Shown: positions 2,400 through 61,235 of the stretch, in pieces
Layout of the letters: every line of letters begins with the position of its first letter
Numbering within the stretch: position 1 is the first letter of the stretch
DNA from: Minisyncoccia bacterium
Lineage (GTDB): Bacteria; Patescibacteriota; Minisyncoccia; UBA6257; JAAZHW01
NCBI GenBank assembly: GCA_041550235.1
Contig: JBFEPE010000002.1
Span: 909-64,908, forward strand
Direction of reading: 5' to 3'
DNA: 64,000 bases
Position numbers and translations under genes: made by a program
Notes under the pieces: model-generated
The model's input: the letters and a program-made list of their open reading frames with translations, nothing else
Told to the model about the DNA's origin: nothing
Database searches by the model: none

Positions 2400-2578
2400 G
2401 CGAGAATAAAACTATTTTTCTAATAACAGCACCCCACCCCTCGCAGGGCGAGGGGTCGATATATGCTATTATTTTTATATATTTAGATTACGATGAGAAT
2501 AAAATTATTTCTAATAGCAACAATCCACCCCTCGCGGGGCGAGGGGTGGGCATATCTTATATTATTTAATAGATTATG
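2400..2578 (+). repeat. two tandem ~88-bp upstream copies of the first ~35 nt of the downstream gene, each followed by a CCCCTCGC-NNN-GCGAGGGG hairpin
   Basis: GCGAGAATAAAACTATTTTTCTAATAACAGC (2400), GATGAGAATAAAATTATTTCTAATAGCAACAAT (2493) and GATGAGAATAAAACTATTTTTCAAAAAAGCAAT (2578, the real gene start) align. Hairpins lie at 2438-2460 and 2526-2550. Confidence 0.7.
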
Positions 2579-3703
2579 ATGAGAATAAAACTATTTTTCA
2601 AAAAAGCAATTATGGAGATAATGAGTTGGGTGGTTGGAATTTGGGGGGTTTTGAGTAGAAAAAAATTTTCAAATAACCCTCAAAAAATAGCCATTCTTTT
2701 TTTGGATTTAGGAATAGGCGATTCAGTTATGCTTTCGCCCATTATCCAAAAAATTGCTGATATATTCAGCCAATCAAAGGTTTTCTTAATAACCCCAACA
2801 GAAGAAATAATCAATTTTAAAAATGTAGAATACCTTAAAGAGAATGAATTTAAAAAAATAAAAAAAGAATTTGATTTAATTATTTCACCCACTTTGTGCC
2901 TGTGGCACTTTCCTTATATTTTTTCTGCAAAAAATTGGATTGGATATTTTGCCAAAACAAAAATTCAGTCTAATTTTAACTTTTTAAAAAATAAAAAAAT
3001 TATTTATTATAAACCAATAGGAGGGCATTATATTATTAGAGGAATTAATTTAATAAAGGCAATAAACAAAGAGGCGGGGGATGAGATGGAAAGAGATTTT
3101 AATAACAAGAGTATTGAATATCCTCTCTTAATATCAAAAGAGCCATCGTATTTTAAAGATGAATTGGAGGGTAAAAAATATATTGCATTAGCACCTGTTT
3201 GTAAGTCTTTGGCAAAGCAATGGCCATTGATGAATTTTGTTGAGATTTGTCGTTATCTTTTTAAAAATAAGGGATTAGATAAAATTGTTTTGTTGGGCGA
3301 TGGCAGTCAATGGGACAAAAATTTTATTTCTAATATGATAAAAGAATTGAGTGATTTGCCACAGGGGGTAATACTTGATGTTGCTGGAAAGAATACACTC
3401 ACGGAAACAATATTTGTTATTAAAAATTCTGAAATTTTTGTCGGGCTTGATTCGGCGCCAGCTCATTTTGCATATTTAAATACCAAGAAGGTGCTGACTA
3501 TTTTTGTAAATATAAATCCTATGGAGATATCTCCGGTTGGAAATTTGAAAAATGTGGAATTTTTGTTTCCCGATGATGAGAGTTATATTTATGGTTATAG
3601 TGGGCTATTAGAAGGGGATGTTGAGTTTTCTCAGAAGTTATTAAAATCAATGCCTGTTCAAAAGGCAATAGATAAGATAAATAATTTATTTGACAAAAGA
3701 TAA
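2576..3703 (+). CDS. glycosyltransferase family 9 (ADP-heptose:LPS heptosyltransferase-like)
   Basis: GT9 hallmark VGLDSAPAHFAYLNTKKVLTIF (GxDSGxxHLAAA-like) and N-terminal IAILFLDLGIGDSVMLSPI. The N-terminal ~35 aa are atypical, so the start is uncertain. Confidence 0.6.
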   Translation: MMRIKLFFKKAIMEIMSWVVGIWGVLSRKKFSNNPQKIAILFLDLGIGDSVMLSPIIQKIADIFSQSKVFLITPTEEIINFKNVEYLKENEFKKIKKEFDLIISPTLCLWHFPYIFSAKNWIGYFAKTKIQSNFNFLKNKKIIYYKPIGGHYIIRGINLIKAINKEAGDEMERDFNNKSIEYPLLISKEPSYFKDELEGKKYIALAPVCKSLAKQWPLMNFVEICRYLFKNKGLDKIVLLGDGSQWDKNFISNMIKELSDLPQGVILDVAGKNTLTETIFVIKNSEIFVGLDSAPAHFAYLNTKKVLTIFVNINPMEISPVGNLKNVEFLFPDDESYIYGYSGLLEGDVEFSQKLLKSMPVQKAIDKINNLFDKR

Positions 3704-3779
3704 ATTATGAGTATAATGTATATTGAGTAGTGAATATGAAATATTCTTTTTTTATCGGAAAGGTCGCACTACTTATTGA

Positions 3780-4118
3780 TTGAAAGAAAAAATAATTATG
3801 GCTTCAGCAAACAGCGATAAGGATTTTCTTGAATTCATTATCAAGGCATTAGTTGATAATCCTGACAAGGTGGAAGTAAATAGGGTTGTTGATGAGATGG
3901 GAGTCTTGCTAAATGTTAAAATCGATCCTAAGGATATGGGTAGGATTATTGGCAGGGCTGGTGCAACTATCAGAGCTATTCGTTCTTTAACTAAATTAGT
4001 TGGTCTAAAGAATAATGCTCGTGTGAATGTCAAGATTGAGGAACCTGCTGGTGGTTCAAGAGTTTCCGGTGGATCAAGTGAGTCATCTGATGTAATGGAT
4101 GATTTGAATAATATCTAG
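3780..4118 (+). CDS. khpA: KH-domain RNA-binding protein (KhpA/UPF0109-like)
   Basis: KH GxxG motif MGRIIGRAGATIRAIRSL. Typical size for a small KH protein. Confidence 0.65.
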   Translation: MKEKIIMASANSDKDFLEFIIKALVDNPDKVEVNRVVDEMGVLLNVKIDPKDMGRIIGRAGATIRAIRSLTKLVGLKNNARVNVKIEEPAGGSRVSGGSSESSDVMDDLNNI

Positions 4119-4146
4119 GAAATTTTTAATTAGTATTTACTATAAA

Positions 4147-4186
4147 AGACTAATCCCGTCCTTTCGGACGGGATTAGTCTTTTTGT
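4147..4186 (+). terminator. rho-independent terminator
   Basis: AGACTAATCCCGTCC-TTTC-GGACGGGATTAGTCT followed by TTTTT. Confidence 0.75.
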
Positions 4187-4217
4187 GCCGTATTCCCTTT
4201 TTTAAAAAATCAACAAG

Positions 4218-4299
4218 TGCCGGGGGCGGGAATCGAACCCGCATGAATTGCTTCACACGATTTTGAGTCGTGCGCGTCTACCAATTCCGCCACCCCGGC
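4218..4299 (-). tRNA. tRNA-Leu(CAA), class II with long variable arm; CCA not encoded
   Basis: Reverse complement reads GCCGGGGTGGCGGAATTGGTAGACGCG-CACGA-CTCAAAA-TCGTG..GCGGGTTCGATTCCCGC-CCCCGGC-A. Cloverleaf with anticodon CAA. Confidence 0.85.
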
Positions 4300-4411
4300 T
4301 TATTTATATTATTATTCTACAAAATTTTAAATAAATTGGAATACCCTGCTCGCATTGATTTTTTGATAATAATTTGGTATTATTTGATTATTAAATAAGT
4401 AATTATAAATA

Positions 4412-4442
4412 CCTCCTCCCCCGCCGAAGGCGGGGGAGGAGG
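4412..4442. repeat. perfect 31-bp GC hairpin palindrome CCTCCTCCCCCGCC-GAA-GGCGGGGGAGGAGG
   Basis: Read directly. Member of the dispersed CCGCC-NNN-GGCGG hairpin family. Confidence 0.8.
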
Positions 4443-4484
4443 TATAAGAATAGTCAGCATATAATTTTAATAAATAGCAAAAAT

Positions 4485-5327
4485 ATGAAAAAAATAGGAA
4501 TCATTACAATAATAATCTTGCTCTTGCTTGGGCTAATCGCTGGATTAATAATCGGCTGGTTAGCAGGCAGAAAGGGATTAGAAGATTGCCAAAAAAATAA
4601 GGGACCATTAAATGCGACCTATGATGTTGAGGGAGAATTATTTACCCTTTCACAAGGAGAGGCAGAGAAAAAACTTTCTCAAACAGGTGGGTCTTCAATT
4701 ATTAAAGTGAAAATTTGGGAGGAGCCAGTTTACGGAGATTTAAATAGCGATGGCATAAGTGATGCCGCATTGATTTTTACTTACGAAGATGAAGATGACT
4801 TTGTTAATTATTATATTTCAGCCGCAATAAAAGATGAGACAAATGACAAATATGATGGATTAAGAGCGGTTTTTTTGGGAGAAGAAATTTCCCCAAAGAA
4901 TTTAATAATCGAAGAAGGTGCAATATTTGTAGATTATGACGATAGGGGACAGAGCGATTCAATATCAGTGAAGCCATATATTGCTCTAGCCAAAACATTT
5001 TTTGTAGAAAGTAATCAGTTGAAAGAATTGGATGTTTTTGCAATTGGCGGACAAAGGGATGATTTTGGTTGTTTGGGTCCAGCAGGGTATTCTTGGGACT
5101 CGGAAATAGAGGCATGTATTCGCCCTTGGGAAATAAATGAAGCCCAAAGAGAGGCGGCAAAAATCGCTGTGGATTATGTTGGATCAGCGGAGGGAATTAC
5201 TATTTTAGAGGTGGAGCAATTTAAATGCCCTGGCTGTTTTCGTGTTTCAATAGAAAAAGATGATAAAAAAATATTAGTGAATTTAGTTGATTTAAAAATA
5301 ACAAAGGTGGAGGAGCATGAATATTAA
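4485..5327 (+). CDS. hypothetical membrane-anchored protein (N-terminal TM, extracytoplasmic domain)
   Basis: 280-aa ORF with TM helix IGIITIIILLLLGLIAGLIIGWLAG. No recognisable family. Confidence 0.5.
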   Translation: MKKIGIITIIILLLLGLIAGLIIGWLAGRKGLEDCQKNKGPLNATYDVEGELFTLSQGEAEKKLSQTGGSSIIKVKIWEEPVYGDLNSDGISDAALIFTYEDEDDFVNYYISAAIKDETNDKYDGLRAVFLGEEISPKNLIIEEGAIFVDYDDRGQSDSISVKPYIALAKTFFVESNQLKELDVFAIGGQRDDFGCLGPAGYSWDSEIEACIRPWEINEAQREAAKIAVDYVGSAEGITILEVEQFKCPGCFRVSIEKDDKKILVNLVDLKITKVEEHEY

Positions 5328-5802
5328 ATTCAATAAAAAAAATGGCTTTACTTTATTAGAGGTTTTAATATCCATTTCTATTTTAGCAATAATAGGTGTT
5401 ATTGGATTTACTTATTTAGCAAATTATAGGAGGTCGTCTCAGTTGAATTTAGAAGCGGGTAGAATAGTTGGTTATTTTCGCCAGACACAAAATAATGCAA
5501 TAGCCGGTAAGAATTTATCAGATTGGGGGATTCATTTTTCTAATCCGAGTGGAGATGGTGGGGATTTTTTTGTTATTTTTGAGGGGAGTTCTTTTGGCTC
5601 AAGCACTACAACAGAGAGAATTTATCTAAATAAGGGGGTTGGGTTTAGCATTCCCGCCGATGATAGTTCCATTGATGTTATCTTTCAGAGAAATAGTGGA
5701 AGGACAAGTTCCTCTACTATTTCAATAATATCAAAGGTTAATACAAATTTAAGCAAGCAAATTAAAATAAATTCATTAGGACAAATAATCAGCAGCGAAT
5801 AG
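5317..5802 (+). CDS. prepilin-type N-terminal cleavage/methylation domain protein (type IV pilin/pseudopilin)
   Basis: N-terminal KKNGFTLLEVLISISILAIIGV matches the GFxxxE prepilin signal. Confidence 0.7.
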   Translation: MNIKFNKKNGFTLLEVLISISILAIIGVIGFTYLANYRRSSQLNLEAGRIVGYFRQTQNNAIAGKNLSDWGIHFSNPSGDGGDFFVIFEGSSFGSSTTTERIYLNKGVGFSIPADDSSIDVIFQRNSGRTSSSTISIISKVNTNLSKQIKINSLGQIISSE

Positions 5803-5865
5803 TCATTAAACAATTAAAAGAGAGTCATATTAAGGGCCGAGGTCGTCATTAAATTATAAAAGAAT

Positions 5866-6333
5866 ATGGATAAAGAAACAGAAAAAATACTGACTCTTTT
5901 AGAGACAAATGAAACCCTATTAGAAAAATTCTACTCATTATGCAGAGCTCATTTCCCCGAAAAAAAAGATTTTTTTGAGCATTTAATGAAGGATGAAAAT
6001 AATCATGCTCAATGGGTAAGAATGATGAGGGCAAAGATAATGAAAGATGGAATTTCTCTTAGAGAATCAATTTGGACAAATTCACTCGCTAAATTTTTTG
6101 AAAAATCAACTAATGCGATATCAGATCTCGTCTCAAAAAAAATGGACTTAACTAAGGCATTGTTTTCAGCTGTGGAGTTAGAAAAAGGAATGTTAGAGAA
6201 GGATTATTTTGAATCAATGATCCCTCATTTAAAATCAGAAGAAACTAAAGATTTTTTAATTCGTCTTTCAAATGCAACAAAAATTCATCTTAAAGAGGTT
6301 GAAGAAGAATGGAAAAAAGAAGTATCATCTTAA
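5866..6333 (+). CDS. hypothetical protein (possible ferritin-like/helical bundle)
   Basis: 155-aa ORF with good coding composition and no diagnostic motif. Confidence 0.45.
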   Translation: MDKETEKILTLLETNETLLEKFYSLCRAHFPEKKDFFEHLMKDENNHAQWVRMMRAKIMKDGISLRESIWTNSLAKFFEKSTNAISDLVSKKMDLTKALFSAVELEKGMLEKDYFESMIPHLKSEETKDFLIRLSNATKIHLKEVEEEWKKEVSS

Positions 6334-7106
6334 AAAAAGAAGAGAATCAAATATTAAACGAGAAGCATAAAGGCATTAAGAATGTCGGTTTTTTTAATGA
6401 CTTAGAAAAATTAAAAAAAGGGGTGCCAGTTGATTATATTATTGGTTGGGTTGATTTTTTAAATTGTAAAATAGATTTGTCTCTTAAGCCTCTCATCCCA
6501 AGAGTAGAAACAGAATTTTGGGTTGAGAAGGTAATAATGGAAATATTAGAATTATCAAAAGATAATAAATTAAAAGTTTTAGATATTTTTTCTGGCTCAG
6601 GCTGTATTGGCGTTTCAATATTAAAAAATTGCCCCAATACAAAAGTTGATTTTGCCGAAGTTAATTCAAAATTTATTAAACAAATAAAAAAGAATCTATC
6701 GATAAACAAAATTCTCTATCCTTCATCATTGAAAGATAGAGGCAGGGCAAATATTATTCAATCAAATATTTTTGATAATATTAAAGATAAATATGATATT
6801 ATTTTGGCAAATCCGCCCTATGTTTCCACTAATAGAAGGGGCAATGTTCAAAGATCAGTTTTGGAATATGAGCCGAGTGAGGCTGTTTTTGGTGGAAAAG
6901 ATGGGCTATTTTTTATTAGAGATTTTTTAGCGAAAGCGAAAGATTATTTGTTGTCAAAAGGCAATATAGAGCCATTTATTTATTTAGAGTTTGATTCTTT
7001 TCAAAAAAGCAAAATAGAAAATATGCTTGCAGAATATAATTATTCAAGTTGGCAATTTTTCAAAGATCAATTCAATCGCTGGCGATTTGCTAAAATTTTT
7101 AAGTAG
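6309..7106 (+). CDS. prmC: release factor glutamine N5-methyltransferase PrmC/HemK
   Basis: NPPY motif (ILANPPYVS), SAM-binding VLDIFSGSGCIG, and N-terminal substrate-binding region. Confidence 0.8.
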   Translation: MEKRSIILKKEENQILNEKHKGIKNVGFFNDLEKLKKGVPVDYIIGWVDFLNCKIDLSLKPLIPRVETEFWVEKVIMEILELSKDNKLKVLDIFSGSGCIGVSILKNCPNTKVDFAEVNSKFIKQIKKNLSINKILYPSSLKDRGRANIIQSNIFDNIKDKYDIILANPPYVSTNRRGNVQRSVLEYEPSEAVFGGKDGLFFIRDFLAKAKDYLLSKGNIEPFIYLEFDSFQKSKIENMLAEYNYSSWQFFKDQFNRWRFAKIFK

Positions 7107-7160
7107 CAGACGATAATTATTATATATTTTGAGAAACATTAAGATAAGATAATACTGATA

Positions 7161-7189
7161 CATCCCCCCCGCCTACGGCGGGGGGGATG
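7161..7189. repeat. GC hairpin CATCCCCCCCGCC-TAC-GGCGGGGGGGATG
   Basis: Read directly. Same family as 4412-4442. Confidence 0.8.
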
Positions 7190-7273
7190 TATGCTTGGTT
7201 TATTATATAATCTGCCCCTCGCGAAGTATGTTATCCGCCTTTGGCAGGCAAGGGCAGGTGCCATTAGCAAAGA

Positions 7274-8056
7274 TTACTTATAATAAATATTGGGAAGATG
7301 GCGGATGTCTAAATATTCTAATGAGGCGAAATCAAAATTTTGCGAAATGAGATTATTTATCGCTAATAAATTTCTCTTTAAATCAAGGGAATCAATCATT
7401 ATTTCCCAATTTGATTCCTCATTTCCCAAAATAAGATTAATATTTTTTGATTCTATTTCCATCTCAATAAGTCCAAATTTATTATCAGCAACATCCTTTA
7501 TTTTTATGATATCATCAAAGTCTTCTTCAGAGAAAATATAGTCGCCTAATTCATACAATCTCCCCGAAAAATCATTTATAAATAGCACATTTTTTTCTAA
7601 TAAGTGATTATTAGAAAAGGCAATAAATATCTGCCCCTTATTATCAAATAAGAAGCATTTTTCATAATCTTCTTTTTGGCATAATTTTCCAAATATTTCT
7701 TTTTCAATTATTTTTATTTCCAATTCTTTATTTTTCCAGCCCTTTATAATATCAAAATCACTTATTGGTAGAAATTGAGAAAAGAAATTTTTTATATTTT
7801 TCTTTTTGATAAGAAGAAGGTTGTTTGATAGTTTTTTTTGAGATAAGTATTCACCCCACTCATTTTCTAATAATTCTCTGTCTAAAAACTTGATATCGCC
7901 TGATAATTTTGATTCTTTTATTTTGAAAAAGTTTGAGAAAATTGTGAAATAAGATAATAGAATTATCATCACAAAAATTGATAGAAAGACTATCATTTCT
8001 ATCCTTTTTTTGTCTTTATTTTTTGATTTCCTTGTCGGAGAGCGATATATTGTCAT
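7274..8056 (-). CDS. ftsQ: cell division protein FtsQ/DivIB-like (short basic cytoplasmic tail, one TM, POTRA-like periplasmic domain)
   Basis: Architecture and low-level pattern (basic N-tail, TM IVFLSIFVMIILLSYFTIF, C-terminal ..LEYLDIRHLPNIYYK) fit FtsQ. Similarity is weak. Confidence 0.5.
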   Translation of the reverse strand: MTIYRSPTRKSKNKDKKRIEMIVFLSIFVMIILLSYFTIFSNFFKIKESKLSGDIKFLDRELLENEWGEYLSQKKLSNNLLLIKKKNIKNFFSQFLPISDFDIIKGWKNKELEIKIIEKEIFGKLCQKEDYEKCFLFDNKGQIFIAFSNNHLLEKNVLFINDFSGRLYELGDYIFSEEDFDDIIKIKDVADNKFGLIEMEIESKNINLILGNEESNWEIMIDSLDLKRNLLAINNLISQNFDFASLEYLDIRHLPNIYYK

Positions 8057-8136
8057 ATATTTGATTATATTAAATATTTAATATATTGCTAATTTTTTAA
8101 GGTTAGAGTTGTAAAAAATTTGGTGGGTAAATAAGA

Positions 8137-9180
8137 GTGGGGTATAATGAGAAAATAATTAAAAAATTTATGAAAATAAAAAGACCCGAATCAAAAAAAT
8201 CTATCTTCCAAGTTCTTATTGATGAAATACAAATTCCATCTATTTGGTTATGGAAATGGTCAGAGAAAGATTATAAAAAAAGCCTAGAGTTAAACATTGA
8301 TGGATATATGGTAAATTTTTACTTTCTTTTGGACAAATTTTCGCAAGACGAAAAATTAAAAGATAGACAATGGCCCATGAGAGGAAGAGTAATCATTTTT
8401 ATTAAAAATCTAGATAAAATATTTGTAGATGGCTTAAAAAATCCGGCAGGAAAAAATTCGCAATTGGTTGCAGAAAAAATATACAATATATATAAGATAA
8501 CTTTAGACAAGGTTGTTTCTTATAGTCGCTGGGTAACAAATTTACCGAGCATTTTAGACGGCATACCTACTAGTTTTGGGGAGATGTTTGGGAACGAAAA
8601 ATTAATTTTGTCGAAAACACATGTTCATTGGAGAGAAGGAAATGATGAATTTAAACCGTTTCAGCCCAAAATAAAAAAAACGAAAGGAAAAATTAACCCA
8701 GTCTTTAAGAGTAAAAATTTGTTGACGGTTGAAAAATGGCAAAAAGTTAGAAATTTTACTAACGGCGATATATCAATATTAAATAGCGAAATCGAGGAGC
8801 TTTTACGCATAAAATCAAAAGCAATTTGGAGAGAGAAGAGAATTGCAGTAATTGAGACAGCGGCTTTGATGGAGGTAATAATTAGAAATAAAGTTCATAA
8901 AGCATTAGAAAAACAGGGCCAAAGTAAAACCAAAATTGAATGTTTTAATGAAGAGGCAGGATTTTCCACATTATTAAACCTTTTATTGCCATTGATTTTG
9001 ACTAGAAATGAAGTTAAGAAATATAAGAAACATATCGATAACTTGGATAAATTAAGAAAAATACGAAATAATATCATGCATCGAAATATTAAAAATGAAA
9101 ACATTAATGAAGAACATATAATCTTGGCTATAAATTCAGCAATAAAAATTATTCAAATTTTAAATAAAAAATTCATCTGA
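8137..9180 (+). CDS. hypothetical protein with C-terminal HEPN-like motif (R-x4-H: RNNIMH); possible Abi-type defence RNase
   Basis: 347-aa ORF with a helical C-terminal region containing KIRNNIMHRN. Confidence 0.45.
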   Translation: MGYNEKIIKKFMKIKRPESKKSIFQVLIDEIQIPSIWLWKWSEKDYKKSLELNIDGYMVNFYFLLDKFSQDEKLKDRQWPMRGRVIIFIKNLDKIFVDGLKNPAGKNSQLVAEKIYNIYKITLDKVVSYSRWVTNLPSILDGIPTSFGEMFGNEKLILSKTHVHWREGNDEFKPFQPKIKKTKGKINPVFKSKNLLTVEKWQKVRNFTNGDISILNSEIEELLRIKSKAIWREKRIAVIETAALMEVIIRNKVHKALEKQGQSKTKIECFNEEAGFSTLLNLLLPLILTRNEVKKYKKHIDNLDKLRKIRNNIMHRNIKNENINEEHIILAINSAIKIIQILNKKFI

Positions 9181-9484
9181 TTTTCCTAATCATGATAAAA
9201 TTTATACTCTTAATTCTGAGTAAAAAAATGGGCCCAGGAAAGCCCTAGTCCCACTTAATATCTTTAATATATCAAATTTAAATAAAATGTCAAATTTTAA
9301 ATTGTGGATAATTTTTTAAATTAGCAAAAAAGATAATTATGGATATAATATAGATAAAATATTGAACCATCCACTCCCGCCCGCCGTAGGCGGGGGATAT
9401 CGGCAAATCAAATAAAATTATATAGTTAATAAATCCCCTCGCCCTTGCGGGCGAGGGGATGGATGACAAATTATTATCAAAAAT

Positions 9485-10278: not shown

Positions 10279-11553
10279 ATGCTAAATATAAAATCAAAAA
10301 AGGAAATAGGTATTTTGATTATTGCTATAGTGATAGTTGCGGCTTTCTTTATTGTTGGGGATCTTATCCCTCGGGGAGAAGAAAAATGGGAGGGAAATAA
10401 TATCTCAATTCAAATTCCAAAAACAAATATAAAAATAATTCTCCCCAATAATCATCAGCAAGAGTCTATTGTGTATTATGAAGATCAAAAGATGGCGATA
10501 TCATTTGATGAGTTTTATAATCCTAATCATTTTGATGAGTTAGAAAATTTTCCCATCATTTCCTCAATTTCTTTATCTACTGGAAAGTCAATAGCCGATT
10601 ATATAAATCAAACTAGCAAAAATAGCCAAGATTTAATCAAGAAAATGGATAATTTATATTTTTATTATGAGCAAAAAAGGAGGTTTGATTTAGAAGAGGA
10701 TTTTTTAAATTTTAAATTTAGAAAAATTGGCGATAGAAGTTATCATGTGAGCGAAAGAATATGTCAGGGGGATATTTATGGTTGCACAATACTAATGTAT
10801 ACAACTTTTTTGGAAAATATAAAAATTGATATCTCAATAGGATTTTATAGAAAAGCTACTAATGAGCAGATGGATGAATTGGTCTCTCAAATAAAAATTA
10901 TTGATGAAAATCAAGAGACATTGGATATTTCAGAATCATTAAGGTCTTGGTATGAGAAAAGTGATGACGAGAAAATGAGAAGTTATATTGATGAAAATGG
11001 ATATAGGAGATTATCAGAATATGCAAATAATAAAGATTTTGAATATACCTGCATATCGCAAGAAGAAGGAGATTTAATGGTGAGAGCGAGGGATGAATTT
11101 AATAAAATGACCGCCGAAATAACAAAATATTCAAATTTTGAAAAAGGAATCAGTCTTGATTTTGGGAGATATGGATTTGATGAAAAAAATGGAAGCATTT
11201 ATTTTGGGCCAAAAACTCTTAGTGGAGGTGGTTGTAGTTTAAATGATTTTAGGGCATATAAACTCATGTTTGTAGAGTCAAGAACAAAAGAAGAAATTAT
11301 CAGAGATGTGAAAAGCAAGGAATATGATGATGTTTCAGATGGGCGGAAATTATTAGAAACAAGAAAAATCAATAATTTTGATGTTGTGATTTGGAAGCAA
11401 TGGGGAGGACTTCCAACCTTATCATTTTATTTTGAAATACCGGGTAAGGGGAAAAATTATTTTTTCAAGATTTTTGATTCAGTAATTAGTGGGGATAGAG
11501 ATTTTAATGCTGTTTTGGATGTCATTAAGACAATAGAGTTGTTAGAAATTTAA
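10279..11553 (+). CDS. hypothetical membrane-anchored protein, 424 aa
   Basis: Shares the N-terminal leader MLNIKSKKEIGILIIAIVIV with the upstream gene (MLDIKLKKEIILIVVAIILL). No family assigned. Confidence 0.45.
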   Translation: MLNIKSKKEIGILIIAIVIVAAFFIVGDLIPRGEEKWEGNNISIQIPKTNIKIILPNNHQQESIVYYEDQKMAISFDEFYNPNHFDELENFPIISSISLSTGKSIADYINQTSKNSQDLIKKMDNLYFYYEQKRRFDLEEDFLNFKFRKIGDRSYHVSERICQGDIYGCTILMYTTFLENIKIDISIGFYRKATNEQMDELVSQIKIIDENQETLDISESLRSWYEKSDDEKMRSYIDENGYRRLSEYANNKDFEYTCISQEEGDLMVRARDEFNKMTAEITKYSNFEKGISLDFGRYGFDEKNGSIYFGPKTLSGGGCSLNDFRAYKLMFVESRTKEEIIRDVKSKEYDDVSDGRKLLETRKINNFDVVIWKQWGGLPTLSFYFEIPGKGKNYFFKIFDSVISGDRDFNAVLDVIKTIELLEI

Positions 11554-11788
11554 TCTATTGCTAATTTTTTTTGAGGTTGGGGTTATAAAAAATTTGAAAT
11601 GCAGTCTTTTTACTTTGCATAGGGAAGGGCATTGGGCTTGATAAATAAATAAAAATGTTTATACTTTGATAATTAAAGATAGAATAATACTTATATTTGA
11701 ATAAGTGATGTTTTTAATTATATTGGAATAGTTGGATACACCTCTCTCCTCCGCCTTCGGCGGAGGGGAAATAATATCAAAATATACT

Positions 11789-12400: not shown

Positions 12401-12451
12401 TAATAATTATTTAATAAAAAGTCGGTTTTTAATTTTTAAATTAATAAAAAT

Positions 12452-13591: not shown

Positions 13592-13614
13592 TGTAATATG
13601 AGAGATATATTGTT

Positions 13615-51278: not shown

Positions 51279-51740
51279 TTATACATGCTTTTTGTCTATA
51301 AAAAACATGTTTGGCACATCCGCTCCTGGAAAAAAATCTCCAAAGATTTCTTTCTTTAAATTTTCGGCATCTAGCGAACTACCCCCCCATCCTAAAAAAA
51401 ATAATACCTTTTCTCCGAAGTGGGAATACTTTATGGACCCTCTTTCCTGTTGGGTAGGCATTTCCGTATAAGTCACAATCCTTTCATTATCATTATCACA
51501 GGTGACAATAAGAGTCGATGTTTTGTCAAGATCAACAGCAAATCGATATTTTTTAAAAAATGATTTGTCATTGTGATGAAAGGCACTTATAATCTCCCTT
51601 ACCCCTCTAACTACTTCTTCGTCGCTCATTGTGGGGAAAAGAAAATCCGCTAAACTAGGCGTAGGTGTTTCAACATAAATCTTGCCTTCTTTGTTCCATA
51701 TACGATCTAAGGCTTTTTGAAAAATATTTTTTTCTCCCAT
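51279..51740 (-). CDS. hypothetical 153-aa protein
   Basis: Start set at MGEKNIF, which has RBS AAGGAG 6 nt upstream. Confidence 0.5.
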   Translation of the reverse strand: MGEKNIFQKALDRIWNKEGKIYVETPTPSLADFLFPTMSDEEVVRGVREIISAFHHNDKSFFKKYRFAVDLDKTSTLIVTCDNDNERIVTYTEMPTQQERGSIKYSHFGEKVLFFLGWGGSSLDAENLKKEIFGDFFPGADVPNMFFIDKKHV

Positions 51741-51864
51741 GATTTTCTCCTTGTGATATTTGATTTTTAAACTACTCAATTATATTATAATATTATTATA
51801 ATTTGTCAATAATAAAAAAATCGCCCCCGAGAGAGCGACAACATCTTCCAGATGGAAGAAAGAA

Positions 51865-52020
51865 GAGTTAGCTTGTCATTTGACTACATGTTAGCACTTC
51901 TATTTTGTTTGTCAATATTAAAACTGTGGATAAGATTATGTGGATCCGGGGGGAATTCTCGCCAGAGGCGAGTCCGCCTTCGGCGGAGAACCCCCAAGAT
52001 GTTGGATGACAAGCCAACTC
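51865..52020. repeat. 156-bp element bounded by 15-bp inverted repeats GAGTTAGCTTGTCAT / ATGACAAGCCAACTC, containing a DnaA-box-like TGTGGATAA and nested GC hairpins
   Basis: Inverted repeats 14/15 complementary. Shares the CTTGTCA core with the MITE-like copies. Confidence 0.5.
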
Positions 52021-52083
52021 TCCCACCCGGCGGACCCAAATAATCATTAACTATTATAATTCAAAATTAATAATTAACAAAAT

Positions 52084-53643: not shown

Positions 53644-53938
53644 TAATAAAAGGTTTTGAGATGATAGCAAAAATTTTGTCTAATGCAAATTAATTCTCAA
53701 ATGTCTTTGACTTTTGATTTATTTCATATAAAATAATCAATATATTGAAATAAATAATATATTTAATAACTTGAGATAGAATAATATTAATCCCCCCCCG
53801 CCATAGGCGGGAGGGGGATATAGGTGTATCATCTATTCAATATATTGAGATAAGATAATTTAAAGCAATACTATTATCTCTCCCCCGACTTCGTCGGGGG
53901 AGAGCATAGACATATCATTTATCAATCAAATAAAAATT

Positions 53939-54682: not shown

Positions 54683-54724
54683 TTAACCCGCCTTCGTTGA
54701 AACTTCGGCGGGCGAAGCAGAAAT

Positions 54725-56022: not shown

Positions 56023-56217
56023 CTCTTTTTTTTGCTTTTGTTTGTTTGTGTTGGCGGGATTATAAATCATCTTGAAATATATAAAAAGAATATCAATACA
56101 TCCCCTCCCCGCCGAAGGGCGGGGAGGGGATGCTAAAGGCAATTATTATTGCCTTATTATTATCTTGAAATGTATAAAAAAATGATTTAATATAATACCG
56201 ATGGATGATTGATAATT

Positions 56218-56321: not shown

Positions 56322-56348
56322 TAAAAAAACCGCTCAGCGGTTTTTTTA
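56322..56348. terminator. bidirectional terminator A7-CCGCTCAGCGG-T7 shared by the tRNA-Tyr (+) and rpmB (-) transcripts
   Basis: AAAAAAACCGCTCAGCGGTTTTTTT. Confidence 0.7.
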
Positions 56349-56537: not shown

Positions 56538-56864
56538 AATACGATTATATTATACTATTTTAAAAAATAATCAATATTTGCATCATAGTATTAATGAAAA
56601 AACTCCCCCCCGCCGAAGGTGGGGGGGGGGTTGGCTAAGTAATATATAAAAAATAATCAAATATATGTATTCGCCTTCCCCCTCGCCGTTGGCGAGGGGG
56701 AGGATCTGGCTAAGTAATATATAAAAAATAATCAAATAATAATTAATTAATAATGAATAAGATGATATTAATATCCCCCCGCCTTCGGCGGGGGGATATT
56801 GGAATAAATTATCTTATTTATTTAAACATTGATTTTATTTAATAAGTATGTATAATTCAAAAAT

Positions 56865-57233
56865 ATGATACAACCGGAAACAAAATTAAAAATTGCTGAT
56901 AATAGCGGAGCAAAAATGGTCAAGTGCTTTAAGATTCTTGGAGGTAGCAAGAGAAGATATGCTCAAATAGGGGACATTGTTGTCGCTTCCGTTAAGGTTG
57001 CTGAGCCACGAAAGGCAGTTAAGAAAAAGGATGTGGTAAAGTGTGTTATTGTGAGACAAAGAAGGGCTTATCGTCGTCCTGATGGTTCATATATAAGATT
57101 TGATGATAATGCTGCTGTGATAATTGATACAAAGAAGGAGCCGAAGGCAACAAGAATTTTTGGTCCAATTCCAAGAGATCTCCGCGAGAAGGGTTATCAA
57201 AAGATTATATCAATGGCATCCGATGTTATATAG
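56865..57233 (+). CDS. rplN: 50S ribosomal protein L14
   Basis: [27 protein letters not shown]. Confidence 0.9.
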
Positions 57234-57323
57234 CAGGTTTGAATATTTAAAAATAAAAAAAATAGAGGGACAAGTTGCTTTTGATAGCATCTTGTCCCAC
57301 TCAATGTTTTTTCGTTTGCCCTC

Positions 57324-57671
57324 TTAATCTTCTTGCTTTTTCGTCGCAGGCACGCGATAGTCTATGGGTACTCCCTGGCTAAGAACATTTTTCATTGTCC
57401 CGAGGGTGAATGTTAGTAAATAAAATAGCTCGCGTGTGTTTATTCCACCTTCATCATTCGCCAAATTTTTTAGGCAAGGCATCTTTTCTTTAACCGGAAT
57501 ACATACATCCAAATACTTTTTACCATCAATATGCGGGGCTTCAAAGTGGATATTTGCCCCACCGAGATTGTATCCCCTTATGATACAAGATGCAATCATT
57601 GATGCTAGATCCCTAGGCTCTTTAAATTCAACCGTGATTTTATCATCTTCACTTTCTTTATGCTTATGCAT
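57324..57671 (-). CDS. hypothetical 115-aa protein (weak OsmC/Ohr-like Cys pattern) encoded antisense between rplN and rplX
   Basis: Start set at MHKHKESE, which has RBS AAAGGAGG. Motifs ASCIIRG and LDVCIPV. Confidence 0.45.
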   Translation of the reverse strand: MHKHKESEDDKITVEFKEPRDLASMIASCIIRGYNLGGANIHFEAPHIDGKKYLDVCIPVKEKMPCLKNLANDEGGINTRELFYLLTFTLGTMKNVLSQGVPIDYRVPATKKQED

Positions 57672-57744
57672 GGTAAAACCTCCTTTTATATTTCTAAAAT
57701 AATCATAACACATATTTAAATAAAATGTCAAGAGGCGACCCGCT

Positions 57745-58030
57745 TGAGGCGGGCGGGTTGCTGGAGTATTATTTGCCTCTGGTGGAGAGGAACACCCCGT
57801 CTCGCCAAGAGGCGAGCCACCCCTCTATTAGAGGGGAATAAAACAACTTGAAATTATTATTTAATTATTGTAATATAGGGTTTGTTTGGTAATCTTGCGA
57901 GTAAATTACTTTGAATTATGAAATGCCTCCCTCTTGTCACCCCCGCGAAGGCGGGGGTCTAAAAACCTCGCCAAAACGGAGATGCCCGCTTTCGCGGGCA
58001 TGACAAAGAAGAGACGGGAATGACAAAGAA
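57745..58030. repeat. composite GC-hairpin block including a MITE-like copy (57933-58008)
   Basis: CGACCCGCTTGAGGCGGGCGGGTTG, ACACCCCGTCTCGCCAAGAGGCGAGCCACCCCTCTATTAGAGGGG, CTTGTCACCCCCGCGAAGGCGGGGGTCTAAAAA, GATGCCCGCTTTCGCGGGCATGACAA. Confidence 0.7.
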
Positions 58031-58035
58031 AAAAT

Positions 58036-58356
58036 ATGAATTCAATAAAAACAAAAGTTAAAAAAGGAGACGAAGTAATGATGTTGGCAGGAAAAGACAA
58101 AGGCAAAAAAGGAAAAATATTAAGAATATTGAGAGAAAAAAATAAAGTAATGATTGAGGGCTTGAATTTAGTAAAGAAACATCAAAGACCAAGAAAGCAA
58201 GGAGAAAAAGGGGAAATTGTCTCATTGCCAAGATTTGTAGATATTTCAAATGTTGGAATATATTGCTCTCCTTGTGGAAAAGGAGTGAGAGTCGGATATC
58301 GTCTTGATGGCGATCAGAAAATAAGAATTTGTAAAAAATGTCAGCAAAGCATATAA
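58036..58356 (+). CDS. rplX: 50S ribosomal protein L24 with a four-Cys zinc-ribbon-like C-terminal insertion
   Basis: KKGDEVMMLAGKDKGKKGKI..LNLVKKHQRP (KOW), then CSPCGKG..x17..CKKC. Confidence 0.85.
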   Translation: MNSIKTKVKKGDEVMMLAGKDKGKKGKILRILREKNKVMIEGLNLVKKHQRPRKQGEKGEIVSLPRFVDISNVGIYCSPCGKGVRVGYRLDGDQKIRICKKCQQSI

Positions 58357-58916
58357 CAATTGAAGAAAAGCATAAAAAGGACATATTAGATAAGTCAAAG
58401 GAATTATTTGGAGTGAAAAATAAAATGTCTGCCCCAAAAATATCAAAAGTAGTTGTTAATGCAGGATTAGGCAGGAAATTATTAAGTATTGAATCAGGAA
58501 AATCAAGGGAAGAACTTTTGAATAATTTTAAGAGCGACTTAATGTTAATAACCGGTCAAGCATTATCAGAAGCAAAAGCAAAAAAATCAATTGCTTCTTT
58601 TAAGAGCAGGGAAGGAATGGTTATTGGATTGAAGGGGACAATAAGAGGAAAAAGAATGAATGATTTTTTGGACCGACTTATAAATTTCGTGTTTCCAAGA
58701 GTGAGGGACTTTAGAGGATTGTCCTTGAGTAATGTTGATAAGAATGGTAATTTGAATATTGGAATTAAAGAAATGATAGTTTTTCCAGAGGTGCCACCAT
58801 CAAGTTCAAAGAATGTTTTTGGGCTACAAATAACAGTCGTTCCTGAAAATATTAAAAATAGAGAGCAGGCAATTGAGTTTTATAGAATATTGGGCTTTCC
58901 TCTAAAAAAAGGTTGA
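58338..58916 (+). CDS. rplE: 50S ribosomal protein L5
   Basis: [18 protein letters not shown]. 19-nt overlap with rplX. Confidence 0.85.
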
Positions 58917-58932
58917 TTTATTGATAATAAAT

Positions 58933-59118
58933 ATGGCAAAACAATCAGTAATTGCGAGAGCAAAGAAAAAACCAAAATTCTCAACGAGAAAGGTGAATCG
59001 CTGTTTCCGTTGTGGTCGTGCCCGATATCTTATCGGTGATTTTGGAGTTTGTAGAATTTGTTTTAGAGAAATGGTCTCGAATGGCGAAATCCCAGGAATC
59101 AAGAAGTCGTCTTGGTAG
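58933..59118 (+). CDS. rpsN: 30S ribosomal protein S14, zinc-binding type Z
   Basis: [46 protein letters not shown]. Confidence 0.85.
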
Positions 59119-59137
59119 TATAATAAGAAGTAGAAAT

Positions 59138-59527
59138 ATGGATACAATAGCAGATTTATTAACACAAATAAGAAATGCATTAGCGGTTAAGAAACCGCTT
59201 ATTTCTGTTCCACACTCAAACTTCAAACAGAATTTAGCCGAATTATTAAGTCGCAGAGGATATTTGGGAAAGATTGAGAAAACAGGAAGGGGTGTTAAGA
59301 AAAATATTAAAATAGAATTAAATTATGACGAGAATGGAAGCCCAAGAATAGTAGAAATAAAGAAAATAAGCAAGCCCGGACAAAGAATATATTCTACTGC
59401 ATCAGAGATAAAGCCAGTAAAGTCGGGACTGGGTCATAGAATAATCTCTACTTCATCAGGATTAATGTTTGATTTTGAGGCAAGAAAGAAGGGATTAGGA
59501 GGCGAAGTAATCTGCGAAATATTTTAA
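59138..59527 (+). CDS. rpsH: 30S ribosomal protein S8
   Basis: MDTIADLLTQIRNALAVKKPLISVPHSNFK. Start trimmed from the listed ORF, which begins inside rpsZ. Confidence 0.9.
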   Translation: MDTIADLLTQIRNALAVKKPLISVPHSNFKQNLAELLSRRGYLGKIEKTGRGVKKNIKIELNYDENGSPRIVEIKKISKPGQRIYSTASEIKPVKSGLGHRIISTSSGLMFDFEARKKGLGGEVICEIF

Positions 59528-59540
59528 TATCTTTCTTTAA

Positions 59541-59581
59541 ATAAAATCCACCGCCAACCATTTTGGTTGGTTGGTGGCGGA
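59541..59581. repeat. perfect palindrome ATCCACCGCCAACCA-TTTTGG-TTGGTTGGTGGCGGAT (bidirectional terminator-like hairpin after rpsH)
   Basis: Read directly. Confidence 0.6.
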
Positions 59582-60122
59582 TAGGAAAGTGTTCTTCTTC
59601 TAGTCTCTTTTTTCAGATTTCTCCTTACAAGAGTTAGGAGGGGGGTTGGTCTCATTAAAAATATTATGTATATAGAGAGACAGAATAACGAGAAGTTAAC
59701 GGGAGCAATTATGGGCAAAATGTCTAATGGTAATCCAAATAAACCCAAGCATGCTATAATCGTTATTGAAAGCAATAAAATCGGTACCCTAAGCATAATA
59801 TAAACAGCAAGTAATAATAAAATTTTTTTTGCACTCATTTCTTTTCTCCTTATTATAATATTTTCTTACTTTTAAATTGTACTACTTTATCTATACTCAT
59901 TATAACATATTCATAAAAATTTGTCAAGGGGCTGAAAATGTGTCATTATATATCACGAAAATAAGGGTATATATTGAAATCTTTAAATAAATAATTAAAC
60001 TAATAAGATTATATTAAAATAGAGGGATTGCCTCCCCCTCGCAAAGCGAGGGGGAGGCAGGGCATTGATATAATTAATAAATAATTAAACTAATAATAAA
60101 ATAATTAATATCATAAAATACC

Positions 60123-60668
60123 ATGTCAAAAATTGGAAAAGCAAAAATTAAATTACCAAGTGGAGTAGAGGCGAAGATAAGCGACTCTGTTTTTTCCGTT
60201 AAGGGACCAAAGGGAGAATTAAATGAAAAAATATTTGATGGCTTTTCTATTTCTATTGAAGATTCCGAAATATCAGTTATCCCACCAGAAAATGCAGGCA
60301 AACAAATCCCTGCCTTATGGGGAACATTAAGGGCATTGATAAGCAATGCCGTTATAGGAGTGAGCGAAGGATATGAGAAAAAACTTATTGTTGAAGGAAT
60401 AGGATTTAAAGTGGTAATAGAAGGAAAAAATTTAGTCCTAAATTTAGGATTTTCACACTCAATAAATTTTCCAATTCCTGATGGCATTGAGATGACAACA
60501 GAAAAAAATACAATTACAATTAAGGGAATAAATAAGGAATTGGTCGGACAAACAGCGGCTGAAATAAGAGCATTTAAAAAACCAGAGCCATACAAGGGAA
60601 AGGGGATTAGGTATAGTGATGAGGTTGTGAGGCGAAAGGCAGGTAAGAAGGCAGTTGGAGCAGGATAA
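60123..60668 (+). CDS. rplF: 50S ribosomal protein L6
   Basis: MSKIGKAKIKLPSGVEAKI..FSVKGPKGEL. Confidence 0.9.
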   Translation: MSKIGKAKIKLPSGVEAKISDSVFSVKGPKGELNEKIFDGFSISIEDSEISVIPPENAGKQIPALWGTLRALISNAVIGVSEGYEKKLIVEGIGFKVVIEGKNLVLNLGFSHSINFPIPDGIEMTTEKNTITIKGINKELVGQTAAEIRAFKKPEPYKGKGIRYSDEVVRRKAGKKAVGAG

Positions 60669-60679
60669 TGAAGGGTGAT

Positions 60680-60785
60680 ATTCTGCCCGCCCGCCTATGG
60701 CGGGGGGTGATAAGACCCACCTTCGTTAAAACTTCGGCGGGGCAAAACCCGCCTTCGTTAAAACTTCGGCGAGGCGAAGTAAAAA
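60680..60785. repeat. hairpin repeat block (CCGCCCGCCTATGGCGGGGGG; two copies of CCGCCTTCGTTAAAACTTCGGCG(G/A)GGC)
   Basis: Read directly between rplF and rplR. Confidence 0.7.
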
Positions 60786-60787
60786 AC

Positions 60788-61147
60788 ATGAAAAATCAAC
60801 AAAAAGAAAAAAATAGAAAAAAGGTATTTAGGAAAAGAAGGGCAGGGGCTCTTATATTTGGAGATGCTCAAACACCACGATTGTCAGTATTTCGCTCCAA
60901 CTCCCATATTTATGGGCAGATTATTGATGATAAGAAAAGAAGCACTATTGTGAGTGCTTCTGATTTAGAGATAAAGGATAGTAAGTTGAATAAGACTCAA
61001 AGGGCGATGAAGGTTGGTGAGTTGTTGGCAACAAAGGCTAAGTCAGTAAAAATATTAAAGGTTGTTTTTGATAGAGGAGGTAATAGATATCATGGACGAG
61101 TCAAAGCATTAGCTGAAGGATCACGAAAAGGAGGTTTGGTGTTTTAA
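60788..61147 (+). CDS. rplR: 50S ribosomal protein L18
   Basis: PRLSVFRSNSHIYGQIIDD..VFDRGGNRYHGRVKALAEG. Confidence 0.85.
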   Translation: MKNQQKEKNRKKVFRKRRAGALIFGDAQTPRLSVFRSNSHIYGQIIDDKKRSTIVSASDLEIKDSKLNKTQRAMKVGELLATKAKSVKILKVVFDRGGNRYHGRVKALAEGSRKGGLVF

Positions 61148-61235
61148 TTTTTTAATAAAATCACCCGCCCGCCAATGGCGGGGGGGGGTTATAGACTTGT
61201 TTTTGTTTAAATATTTAGTAATATCTTTAATAAAT

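Follow-up and report, generated by a model that had tools for sequence, protein, structure and literature searches.

The stretch of 64,000 nucleotides analysed here, called the window throughout, is from a Minisyncoccia bacterium (GenBank assembly GCA_041550235.1, contig JBFEPE010000002.1) and has a GC content of ~33%, with a GC skew that is positive over its full length. Its genes include those for RecA, FtsK, SecD/F, GAPDH, PilMNO, a type I restriction-modification system and many ribosomal proteins, and seven tRNAs are encoded as well. The named best matches of RecA and of ribosomal protein L6 belong to Candidatus Paceibacterota, Parcubacteria or Patescibacteria; judged by these matches, the window is from a Paceibacteria-type bacterium of the candidate phyla radiation (CPR), which bears out the CPR-like character assigned to it in a first-pass annotation of the same DNA. 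The subject of this study is the family of short GC-rich hairpin repeats that lie between the genes from about position 1780 to about 63630. We found these elements to be organised in two layers, to be strictly intergenic in the window, and to differ between closely related strains.

Intergenic hairpins in two layers

The pattern CCGCC-N3-GGCGG was matched 30 times in the window, against 0.01 expected from shuffles, and CCCTCGC-N3-4-GCGAGGG three times, against 0 expected; these counts are far above composition and agree with the pervasive family described earlier. Perfect hairpins (stem of at least 7 bp with at least 6 G-C pairs, loop of 3-5 nt) occur 29 times in the window and 0 times in block shuffles. 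A mismatch-tolerant scan revealed 42 hairpins with a G-C core, all 42 of which are intergenic once the start of L3 is moved to 11790, the intergenic share of the window being 16-19%. GC-rich islands account for 27% of the intergenic DNA and raise its GC content from 24% to 34%. The CCGCC/GGCGG half-sites are about 5-12 times denser in intergenic than in coding DNA, and their palindromic pairs are found in intergenic DNA only. An element is present in 30 of the 39 gaps of at least 100 nt (16 of 18 tandem, 5 of 8 convergent and 9 of 13 divergent gaps), and the overall density is 4.5 hairpins per 10 kb, about 0.5 per kb. The 30 positions listed in the first-pass annotation, which had placed hairpins on both sides of genes, all fall on GC-rich islands or hairpins, but the family is larger than that list: further copies lie at 1863, 13637, 13754, 20906, 32491, 50967-51147, 51974, 60691, 61851-61896, 62454-62503 and 63538.

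The first layer consists of about 29 stand-alone, near-perfect palindromes, many of them perfect across 12-17 bp. Their apex is conserved as (C)CGCC-N3-GGCG(G) or CTCGC-N3-GCGAG, while the outer arms vary by copy yet remain perfectly complementary and often extend into A/T pairs, as in the 16-bp perfect palindrome ATTCCCTCCCCCCGCC-gta-GGCGGGGGGAGGGAAT at 33008-33042. The earlier statement that stems are conserved while loops vary covers only half of this: it holds for the CCGCC/GGCGG apex, but not for the outer arms. By its sequence, the conserved apex points to common descent. The C-rich arm comes first in 28 of the 29 perfect hairpins, and CCGCC...GGCGG was found 31 times against 0 for GGCGG...CCGCC. 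Since a palindrome is identical on both strands, this polarity is uninformative on orientation; it argues for common descent or a sequence-specific mechanism, and not for generic selection for stable hairpins.

Read from the left, the stand-alone copies begin with ACCCCTCGC-agg-GCGAGGGGT at 2436-2456, preceded by CACCCC, and CCACCCCTCGC-ggg-GCGAGGGGTGG at 2525-2549, which lies in a 61-nt direct duplication with 2417-2477. A 17-bp perfect palindrome with a GAA loop (4409-4445) occupies the divergent gap between tRNA-Leu and hyp280, and a 16-bp perfect one with a TAC loop (7158-7192) a convergent gap. They are followed by CGCCCGCC-gta-GGCGGGGG (9376-9396), the 12-bp palindrome ATCCCCTCGCCC-ttgc-GGGCGAGGGGAT (9433-9460), the hairpin CCTCCGCC-ttc-GGCGGAGG upstream of rplC (11743-11771), CCCCGCCC-tttat-GGGCGGGG upstream of rplD (12882-12902), a 15-bp perfect palindrome with a GAA loop (13849-13881) and the imperfect hairpin CCACACCCCGC-gaag-TGGGGGATGG (18306-18333). 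The 14-bp palindrome TATCCCCCCGCCCC-ttc-GGGGCGGGGGGATA lies in a divergent gap (19385-19415), close to the 12-bp CCCCTCGCCGAC-aaa-GTCGGCGAGGGG (19432-19458). Downstream of recA, a 17-bp palindrome starts 71 nt past the stop codon (22086-22122), and a second hairpin (22199-22221) and the 10-bp palindrome CCCGCCCCGC-aag-GCGGGGCGGG (22561-22583) come after it. The hairpin CACCCCCGCC-tat-GGCGGGGGGG at 29178-29200 has an over-long G-run, a 14-bp perfect palindrome lies at 34836-34866, and CCCCCGCC-aca-GGCGGGGG at 46343-46361 is one of the few copies followed by a T-run. Further on are the hairpin CCCCCCCCGCC-ata-GGCGGGAGGGG (53792-53816), the 12-bp palindrome CTCTCCCCCGAC-ttc-GTCGGGGGAGAG upstream of rpsB (53878-53904) and a 15-bp palindrome between tRNA-Thr and tRNA-Tyr (56099-56132). 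At 56603-56701, two unlike hairpins, CCCCCCCGCC-gaag-GTGGGG... and TCCCCCTCGCC-gtt-GGCGAGGGGGA, are each followed by the same 43-nt flank; they belong to a 75-nt tandem unit (56589-56738) whose 3' 43 nt are 91% identical across the two copies and whose hairpin halves are unlike, the outcome of either a hairpin replacement or the insertion of two hairpins beside the same flank. The series ends with 14-bp palindromes 64 nt upstream of rplN (56770-56800) and upstream of rplF (60029-60059), and a hairpin between rplR and rpsE (61162-61188). Separately, a perfect 18-bp palindrome, AAAAGACTAATCCCGTCC-tttc-GGACGGGATTAGTCTTTT, with CCCGTCC/GGACGGG in its apex, lies with an A-run and a T-run in the gap between khpA and tRNA-Leu (4144-4183) and has the appearance of a canonical bidirectional terminator.

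The second layer consists of about 20 mosaic arrays of 40-240 nt, assembled in fixed orientation from at least seven recurring hairpin modules that are common to many loci at 70-100% identity. The two hairpin classes of the first-pass annotation are accordingly recast as stand-alone palindromes and arrays of oriented modules, many of its hairpins being modules inside longer arrays. M1 is CCGCC-aga-GGCGGATGTGCCACC, M2 is ACCCGCCTTCG...CTTCGGCGAGGCGAAG, M4 is GTCACCCCCGC-gaag-GCGGGGGTCTAAAAA, M5 is CCCAGCCACGTTGAAATTGCGAAGCAATTT...CGTGGCG, M6 is CAGAATGTCCGCC-tat-GGCGGGGAAT and M7 is GAGATGCCTGCC-ttcg-CAGGCATGACAA. M3 comprises an A-rich lead, ACACCCCGTC, a hairpin (P1), (G)CCA, a second hairpin CCCCTCT-N3-AGAGGGG (P2) and AATT. 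In its form, the second palindrome class, CCCCTC(GCC-nnn-GGC)GAGGGGAAT, resembles an M3 hairpin, CCCCTCT-ata-AGAGGGGAAT, to which a GCC-N3-GGC apex has been added. Asymmetric modules lie on the plus strand, as do most genes, and the three minus-oriented arrays (7213-7265, 50992-51195 and 62428-62518) each lie 3' of a minus-strand gene. In intergenic DNA, CACCCC was counted 18 times against 4 for its complement, and CGTC 22 times against 7 for GACG.

The plus-strand arrays begin at 1784-1939 with an M3 copy that has a long P1 (equivalent to M5; 1784-1861), M6 and M2, upstream of rplI and ending 7 nt before its ATG. The gap between rplD and rplW (13629-13776) holds M1, an M2-like module, M3 (13707-13750) and M6, and the array upstream of recA (20905-20971) holds the hairpin CCCGCC-ttt-GGCGGG followed by M3 (20924-20971). 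After mraZ there is an array of a ACACCCCGTC hairpin, M5 and two M2 copies (30628-30793), and a short one with a partial M2 and M6 separates mraW from the next ORF (open reading frame; 32466-32520). Single modules are found at 38866-38908 (M1, CCGCC-aga-GGCGGATGTGCCAC...) and 39470-39530 (M5, CCCAGCCATGTTGAAATTGCGAAGCAATTTTTTACATGGCGGG), and at 41821-41881 M1 is nested within the loop of a CCTCCCTCGCC...GGCGAGGGGGG hairpin. M4 followed by M7 lies after secD (43297-43389) and again at 57925-58030, where it ends 6 nt before the ATG of rplX. At 49355-49450, the palindrome TCCCCTCGCC-tac-GGCGAGGGGA, M1 and an M2 tail end 12 nt before an ATG, and the GC-rich array at 51942-52042 contains CTCGCC-aga-GGCGAG and TCCGCC-ttc-GGCGGA. 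M2 occupies the intercistronic gap between rpsB and tsf (54685-54718). In the ribosomal protein block, an array with M3 (57792-57840) lies between rplN and rplX (57727-57840), a 108-nt composite of a hairpin and two M2 copies between rplF and rplR (60681-60781), and a two-hairpin array between rpsE and rplO (61843-61903); a ACACCCCGTC hairpin, M4 and M7 follow at 63494-63628. On the minus strand are an M1-like module (7213-7265, read directly) 3' of the gene at 7274-8056, a 17-bp palindrome (50955-50991) with a 200-nt mosaic array, together spanning 50955-51195, 3' of the gene at 51279-51779, and an M1 and M6 array (62428-62518) 3' of the gene at 62666-63058.

The elements also affect the calling of gene starts. 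Mechanical ORF calls at 1740, 11732, 59012, 60668 and 61197 (L9, L3, S8, L18 and S5) are over-extended upstream through GC elements, which are free of stop codons; the starts corrected from Pfam offsets and a related assembly (L147, see below) are near 1947 for L9, at 11790 for L3, ~59135 for S8, 60788 for L18 and ~61238 for S5. Measured from these, the hairpin before rplC lies 18 nt from the true ATG, within the 20 nt reported earlier, and that before rpsE lies about 50 nt away, outside it. Shine-Dalgarno sequences are nearly absent at gene starts, whose usual context is AAAAAT-ATG, and in many genes TATAAT is found 7-12 nt upstream of the ATG, which suggests leaderless or very-short-leader mRNAs. 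The supply of Shine-Dalgarno sequences by the elements was rejected, as the genome hardly uses them and the AAAAAT-ATG after modules is the general start context; modules ending before starts (rpsB-tsf, rplF-rplR, rpsE-rplO) therefore merely fill gaps. Strong AAGGAGG sites do occur, as an exception, at two small minus-strand ORFs (30858-31315), which may be of foreign origin. A shared promoter, TATAATGGNAAGG, was likewise dismissed as a part of the elements, with 12 matches against 14 expected.

GC-rich, short-loop stems 3' of genes resemble intrinsic terminators, and hairpin clusters have reportedly been proposed as transcription terminators. The canonical form, a hairpin with a U-tract, is rejected by the flanking sequence: at least five T in six positions on either side were found in 5 of the 42 hairpins, against about 10% per side in background intergenic DNA, in line with the earlier remark that these are not ordinary terminators. 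A modified version would hold that the elements are terminators or insulators lacking a U-tract, selected one by one in a terminator-poor genome. The hairpins are indeed of high stability and confined to intergenic DNA, often lying 15-80 nt past a stop codon, and with TATAAT near the start of many genes insulation would make sense. However, T-runs are not enriched beside the elements, while canonical sites of a hairpin and a T-run exist elsewhere in the window (1176-1196, 29873-29890 and 56328-56348); divergent gaps and operons that have to be co-transcribed (rpsB-tsf, rplF-rplR, phage late operons) hold elements too, the set of copies changes from strain to strain, and the 31:0 polarity is not predicted by generic hairpin selection. 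We therefore regard this explanation as improbable.

The conserved CCGCC/GGCGG core and the strict polarity could also be read at the level of double-stranded or cruciform DNA, with the elements serving as sites for a dimeric protein (nucleoid, gyrase or recombinase) or as inverted-pair uptake sequences. CPR bacteria depend on DNA uptake, PilM, PilN and PilO are encoded in the window, uptake sequences are said to double as terminators, and the density of the elements would fit. So would the enrichment of GNA/TNC triloops, which are unusually stable in DNA and account for 12 of 30, against 11% expected. Against this, the confinement of palindromic pairs to intergenic DNA and the enrichment of half-sites there are unlike uptake sequences, asymmetric modules follow gene orientation, and M3 is common to phages of unrelated GC content. 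A DNA-level role of this kind appears very improbable.

The M3 two-hairpin family

M3 is part of a far wider family, which other bacteria and tailed phages share. With GCCACCCCTCTATWAGAGGG as the pattern, 20 contigs of 30-55% GC were retrieved from metagenomes; P1 differs in nearly each genome and is always a hairpin (TGCC/GGCA, TATC/GATA, AGAC/GTCT, ATTCCGA/TCGGAAT, ATTTTC/GAAAAT, CC/GG). P1 sequences are alike within a genome and unlike between genomes. A covariance model places full M3 copies in the window at 1784, 13707, 20924 and 57792, and others in the related assembly L003. In the alignment to this model 98.5% of cells are paired, against 49-58% in slid controls, and the second P1 pair is UA in 11, AU in 10 and CG in 2 copies, values that lean towards structure, as the alignment was fitted to the model, and that understate P1, most of which is aligned as insertion. 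Two P2 pairs show CG-to-UA changes on both sides, and viral contigs contain more compensatory P2 variants, e.g. CCCCTTCG...CGAAGGGG. M3 thus shows compensatory changes; regarding the selection on structure proposed for the hairpins at large, compensatory evidence proper comes from the M3 P1 helix.

A gapped M3 pattern matched 11 viral contigs of 34-66% GC, with 17 model matches, whereas a P2-only pattern gave 0 matches in viral contigs. The M3-bearing viral contigs carry genes for major head, portal, baseplate and tail-fibre proteins, and M3 occurs in them in sense orientation, about one per intercistronic gap in head/tail operons and often 9-14 nt before a ribosome-binding site or start codon; in contig L154, for example, an ORF ends at 10437, M3 spans 10479-10521 and the next start is at 10536. 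No match was obtained with the M3 consensus in a BLAST search of 50,697 GenBank phages, and no protein family was found to recur beside M3 copies in at least three loci. Rfam identified only tRNAs at gathering score in the window, and permissive scans (E up to 1, 5 and 10) gave no relevant match; a 'P9' match at 62449-62522 stayed below threshold (27 bits, cut-off 43) and was disregarded.

Such placement is what would be expected if the elements, M3 above all, were functional intercistronic RNA signals for processing, stability or translation coupling, selected site by site and recognised by a conserved trans-acting factor, for instance an RNase or an RNA-binding protein. The exclusive sense orientation, the regular spacing in phage structural operons and the covariation of P1 and P2 all suit this explanation, as does the invariance of the single-stranded ACACCCCGTC, CCA and AATT in hosts of 34-66% GC. 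Other observations are at odds with it: P1 is alike within and unlike between genomes, as intragenomic copying predicts, and neither a co-occurring protein family nor an Rfam match was found in the searches described above. This is the main rival to the explanation that we prefer, and its standing depends further on the strain comparison given below.

Several M3-bearing contigs have additional features. Contig L128, with two tandem M3 copies, carries a Moco riboswitch (4650-4760; 68 bits) and an SBBP-repeat protein, matched in an ORF homology search, which is a poor taxonomic marker; from these two features the M3 family probably extends beyond CPR. In L136, a gene for a DUF559 (Vsr-like endonuclease) protein lies between inverted M3 copies (minus strand 3861-3905, plus strand 4272-4313) and is followed by an N6/N4 DNA methylase gene and more M3 copies. 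By analogy, this layout, seen in one genome only, recalls REP-flanked RAYT genes (REP, repetitive extragenic palindrome). In L140 (8960-9960), L139 and L145, all of roughly 30% GC, GGCT...AGCC-ACC hairpin modules and an (ATGAAGG)x8 microsatellite lie downstream of M3; homology in this group is limited to about 130-170 nt around M3, and the flanking genes differ.

Turnover between strains and split operons

Two assemblies of the same lineage, L003 (GCA_041559835.1) and L147, whose genes are 95-97% identical to those of the window, were used for strain comparison. The same element families are present in both, so the hairpins are not confined to the window. In L003, where RecA is 99% identical at the amino acid and about 95% at the nucleotide level, an extra 64-nt module is inserted upstream of recA exactly between AAAACAC and CCCGTCTCGC. 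Downstream of recA, L003 has about 120 extra nt including an M4-like hairpin; the core of the first hairpin (22086-22122) is kept while its flanks are not, and the next one (22199-22221) has the loop TAC instead of GTA, i.e. it is flipped. The array at 62428-62518 has an 82%-identical copy in another context in L003 (7014-7148), the 140-nt array concerned spanning 62366-62503 in the window.

The differences from L147 (L6 98% identical in amino acids, genes 95-97% in nucleotides) extend to all four gaps compared around rplF-rplR-rpsE. Upstream of rplF, L147 carries another module than the window; between rplF and rplR, the 108-nt composite of the window is absent and the gap is 12 nt; at the rplR-rpsE junction, TTTTAATT^...^GACTTG, the place of the 44-nt hairpin unit of the window is taken by a cassette about 840 nt long, which contains hairpins, a promoter-like repeat and two minus-strand ORFs; after rpsE, the modules differ. 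At intergenic junctions, elements thus come and go, replace one another and become nested on the time scale of strain divergence. More distant relatives, at 68-85% protein identity, have few or none: 1.2 hairpins per 10 kb were found in L124 and 0 in L125, L002 and L148. A scan of genome contigs with the 14-mer GGCGGATGTGCCAC, a short pattern, gave only chance single matches in unrelated GC-rich genomes (L004-L083 and on).

This comparison bears on two of the alternatives. The source is metagenome-assembled, and repeats can seed chimeric joins, so that an assembly or binning artefact has to be considered; its probability is negligible, however, as three independent assemblies (the window with Logan contig L001, L003 and L147) have these families in common and the flanking genes are collinear across elements. 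The RNA-signal explanation agrees with where M3 lies in phages and with its invariant sequence. It does not agree with the presence, absence or replacement of elements in orthologous gaps of strains whose genes are 95-97% identical, nor with their lack in relatives with the same genes. Taking both sides together, we consider it unlikely, though a serious contender.

The core operons of the window are broken up. L148, with 68% L6 identity, has a canonical, compact L2-SecY operon (1-9474) with gaps of 1-30 nt. In the window, L3, an inserted ORF, L4, an array and L23 lie at 11.7-14.3 kb (11732-14345) beside ftsK, and the L14-L15 block lies 42 kb away at 56.8-62.3 kb (56865-62330) with inserts between genes. 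Given the compact operon of L148 and the few or no elements in relatives, the inflated gaps of the window must be derived and recent. No paralogous ORFs were found in the inserted regions, and NCBIfam gave no match for 10 hypothetical ORFs.

A number of further features were noted in and around these loci. Minus-strand hypothetical ORFs lie between ribosomal protein genes at 57324-57731 and possibly at 59524-59838, L15 is not followed by SecY, and a HicA toxin and RHH/HicB-like antitoxin pair (16769-17329) adjoins ftsK. The genes secD and secF are about 2.2 kb apart (43231-45405), separated by the M4 and M7 array and five small ORFs (hyp177, hyp61, DUF6941, hyp130 and hyp92); mraZ and mraW are about 1 kb apart (30578-31560), with a mosaic array and two or three small minus-strand ORFs between them. 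The promoter-like repeat AAAAATTTGTCAAGGGGCTGAAAATGTGTTATAGTGTATA (TTGTCA, 17 nt, TATAGT) occurs at 59895-59943 in the window and at 1408-1470 and 1796-1865 in L147, directly after inserted cassettes and ahead of rplF or rpsE, and looks as if it restores transcription of the interrupted operon. Upstream of recA (20139-20985, against 1400-2540 in L003), an unrelated ORF of 222 aa, which has a terminator hairpin of its own, stands in L003 in place of the minus-strand ORF hyp116 (20416-20766); the replacement is flanked by 83 nt that are 100% identical (20275-20357) and a ~91%-identical stretch from 20775.

Relation to known repeats and significance

The resemblance to REP elements proposed in the first-pass annotation is supported, although the closest kind is the CGTC-tagged REPs and not the GTAG-tagged REPs associated with RAYT. 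CGTC-tagged REPs, which include dRS3 of Neisseria and RPE-4/RPE-6 of Rickettsia, are short palindromes with an unpaired CGTC (or TGTC/CCTC) tag on one side and an unpaired tail, mostly CCA, on the other, a stem of 8-9 bp with A-T at its first two positions and a loop of 4-5 nt, and are mostly arranged as head-to-head dimers; they are high-copy, mostly intergenic and probably transcribed, occur in 5 phyla and have no dedicated transposase known, and in Neisseria they form large mosaic intergenic arrays, some lying inside other palindromes (Di Nocera, De Gregorio & Rocco 2013, PMC3733652). In M3, the P1 part, e.g. CGTC-ATTCCGA-tgc-TCGGAAT-GCCA, has the same tag and tail. Most M3 copies read ...CCCCGTC-P1 (22 of 23 have C in column 10 of the covariance-model alignment), P1 is mostly followed by (G)CCA and in a few copies by ACA, and the pair beside the closing C-G of P1 is A-U or U-A in 21 of 23. 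Other window modules start with CGTC or TGTC, while the stand-alone C/G-run palindromes, unlike CGTC-tagged REPs, have no tag. P1 stems range from 2-8 bp up to much longer (M5-type), with loops of 3-5 nt, and the full stem description is matched by only some copies (L130-type ATTCCGA/TCGGAAT). The obligatory second conserved hairpin (CCCCTCT-N3-AGAGGGG-AATT) and the 5' ACACCC extension of M3 are outside that description, its copies are single or head-to-tail (L137/L144, L128, L153, L158) instead of head-to-head, and its hosts, CPR bacteria and phages, are outside the five phyla reported.

Other repeat families share some of these features. NIMEs are RS units flanked by dRS3, that is, arrays of 25-150-nt modules separated by short ATTCCC...GGGAAT-type GC palindromes, and dRS3 has been linked to phage or IS110-type integration. 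The palindrome at 33008-33042 and the array at 50955-51195 are NIME-like, but the module sequences differ and the modules of the window follow gene orientation. As in the REPs and BIMEs of E. coli, interspersed extragenic palindromes form mosaic units with strain-level variability; unlike in classical REP/RAYT systems, no GTAG tag lies beside the window hairpins. The earlier report that no RAYT transposase is in view held, as neither a Y1/RAYT (PF01797) nor another transposase domain was found in window ORFs of at least 100 aa. The GC clusters and palindromic hairpins of AT-rich organelle genomes (yeast mitochondria, Volvox, sponge RHEs), which are described as lineage-specific blooms and presumed selfish, similarly invade the intergenic DNA of compact AT-rich genomes; they differ from the present elements in host, sequence, the lack of oriented modules and the lack of a phage connection. 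In comparison with MITEs, palindromes are trivially inverted repeats, and P1 of M3 is flanked by a direct repeat, (A/C)CACCCC, that could be a target duplication or a part of the motif. CRISPR, TIGR and integron attC arrays were set aside on anatomy, the copies being dispersed and having neither variable spacers nor R'/R'' boxes. Our literature search found no description of REP-like repeats in CPR.

On balance, we judge it probable that the elements are non-autonomous hairpin repeats of a REP/BIME/NIME-like kind that bloomed in this CPR lineage, with CGTC-tagged REPs as their nearest counterpart; they are taken as non-autonomous because no transposase is found in cis within the 64 kb. Spread and turnover would proceed via hairpin-forming single-stranded DNA, driven by a trans-acting hairpin-recognising enzyme, as RAYT is for REPs, and/or by template switching in replication, which would also account for perfect arms and a flipped loop. 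The elements would be tolerated or favoured only in sense orientation and would persist because the stable RNA hairpins transcribed from them are harmless, or useful as 3'-exonuclease barriers or partial insulators between cistrons. For E. coli REP RNA, roles as 3'-exonuclease barriers and in modulation of the up- or downstream cistron are known. In this way the elements would have inflated and fragmented otherwise compact operons.

Several points weigh against this explanation. No mobilising enzyme was found among the window ORFs of at least 100 aa or as a family in at least three M3 loci, and the clean 108-nt insertion between rplF and rplR shows no visible target-site duplication. Modules within an array are co-oriented, whereas the REPs of a BIME alternate in orientation and have defined linker motifs between them, and elements occupy 9 of 13 long divergent gaps, a higher proportion than is reported for classical REPs, which lie mostly in tandem and convergent gaps. 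The M3 sequence is kept across hosts of 34-66% GC, an invariance that could reflect a specific conserved function instead, and the RNA-level role given to the elements above is purely conjectural.

A bolder possibility, which we put forward tentatively and with low expectation, is that M3 is an undescribed small structured element, ACACCCCGUC, variable hairpin, CCA, CCCCUCU-N3-AGAGGGG, AAUU, common to tailed phages, CPR bacteria and other bacteria, which acts as a mobile RNA/DNA module between cistrons and is a target, perhaps even a processing substrate, of a near-universal machine. The minimal substrate of RNase P or of the CCA enzyme has the shape of a hairpin with CCA behind it. M3 and its palindromic relatives would then remodel even the ribosomal-protein superoperon of a minimal genome, bringing portable promoters and antisense micro-genes.

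The usual view of CPR bacteria is that they are streamlined and that their core operons are compact and syntenic. The lineage of the window breaks with this picture: a quarter of its intergenic DNA is a strain-variable, GC-rich hairpin repeat, and insertions separate secD from secF and mraZ from mraW and break up the universally conserved ribosomal-protein operon. In practical terms, such repeats break metagenome assemblies and can mislead gene-start calls. With its covariation and no Rfam entry, M3 is a testable candidate for a new mobile or regulatory RNA/DNA motif. It ties a bacterial interspersed repeat to elements between the structural genes of uncultivated tailed phages, and possibly reflects an exchange of non-coding elements between phages and their hosts.

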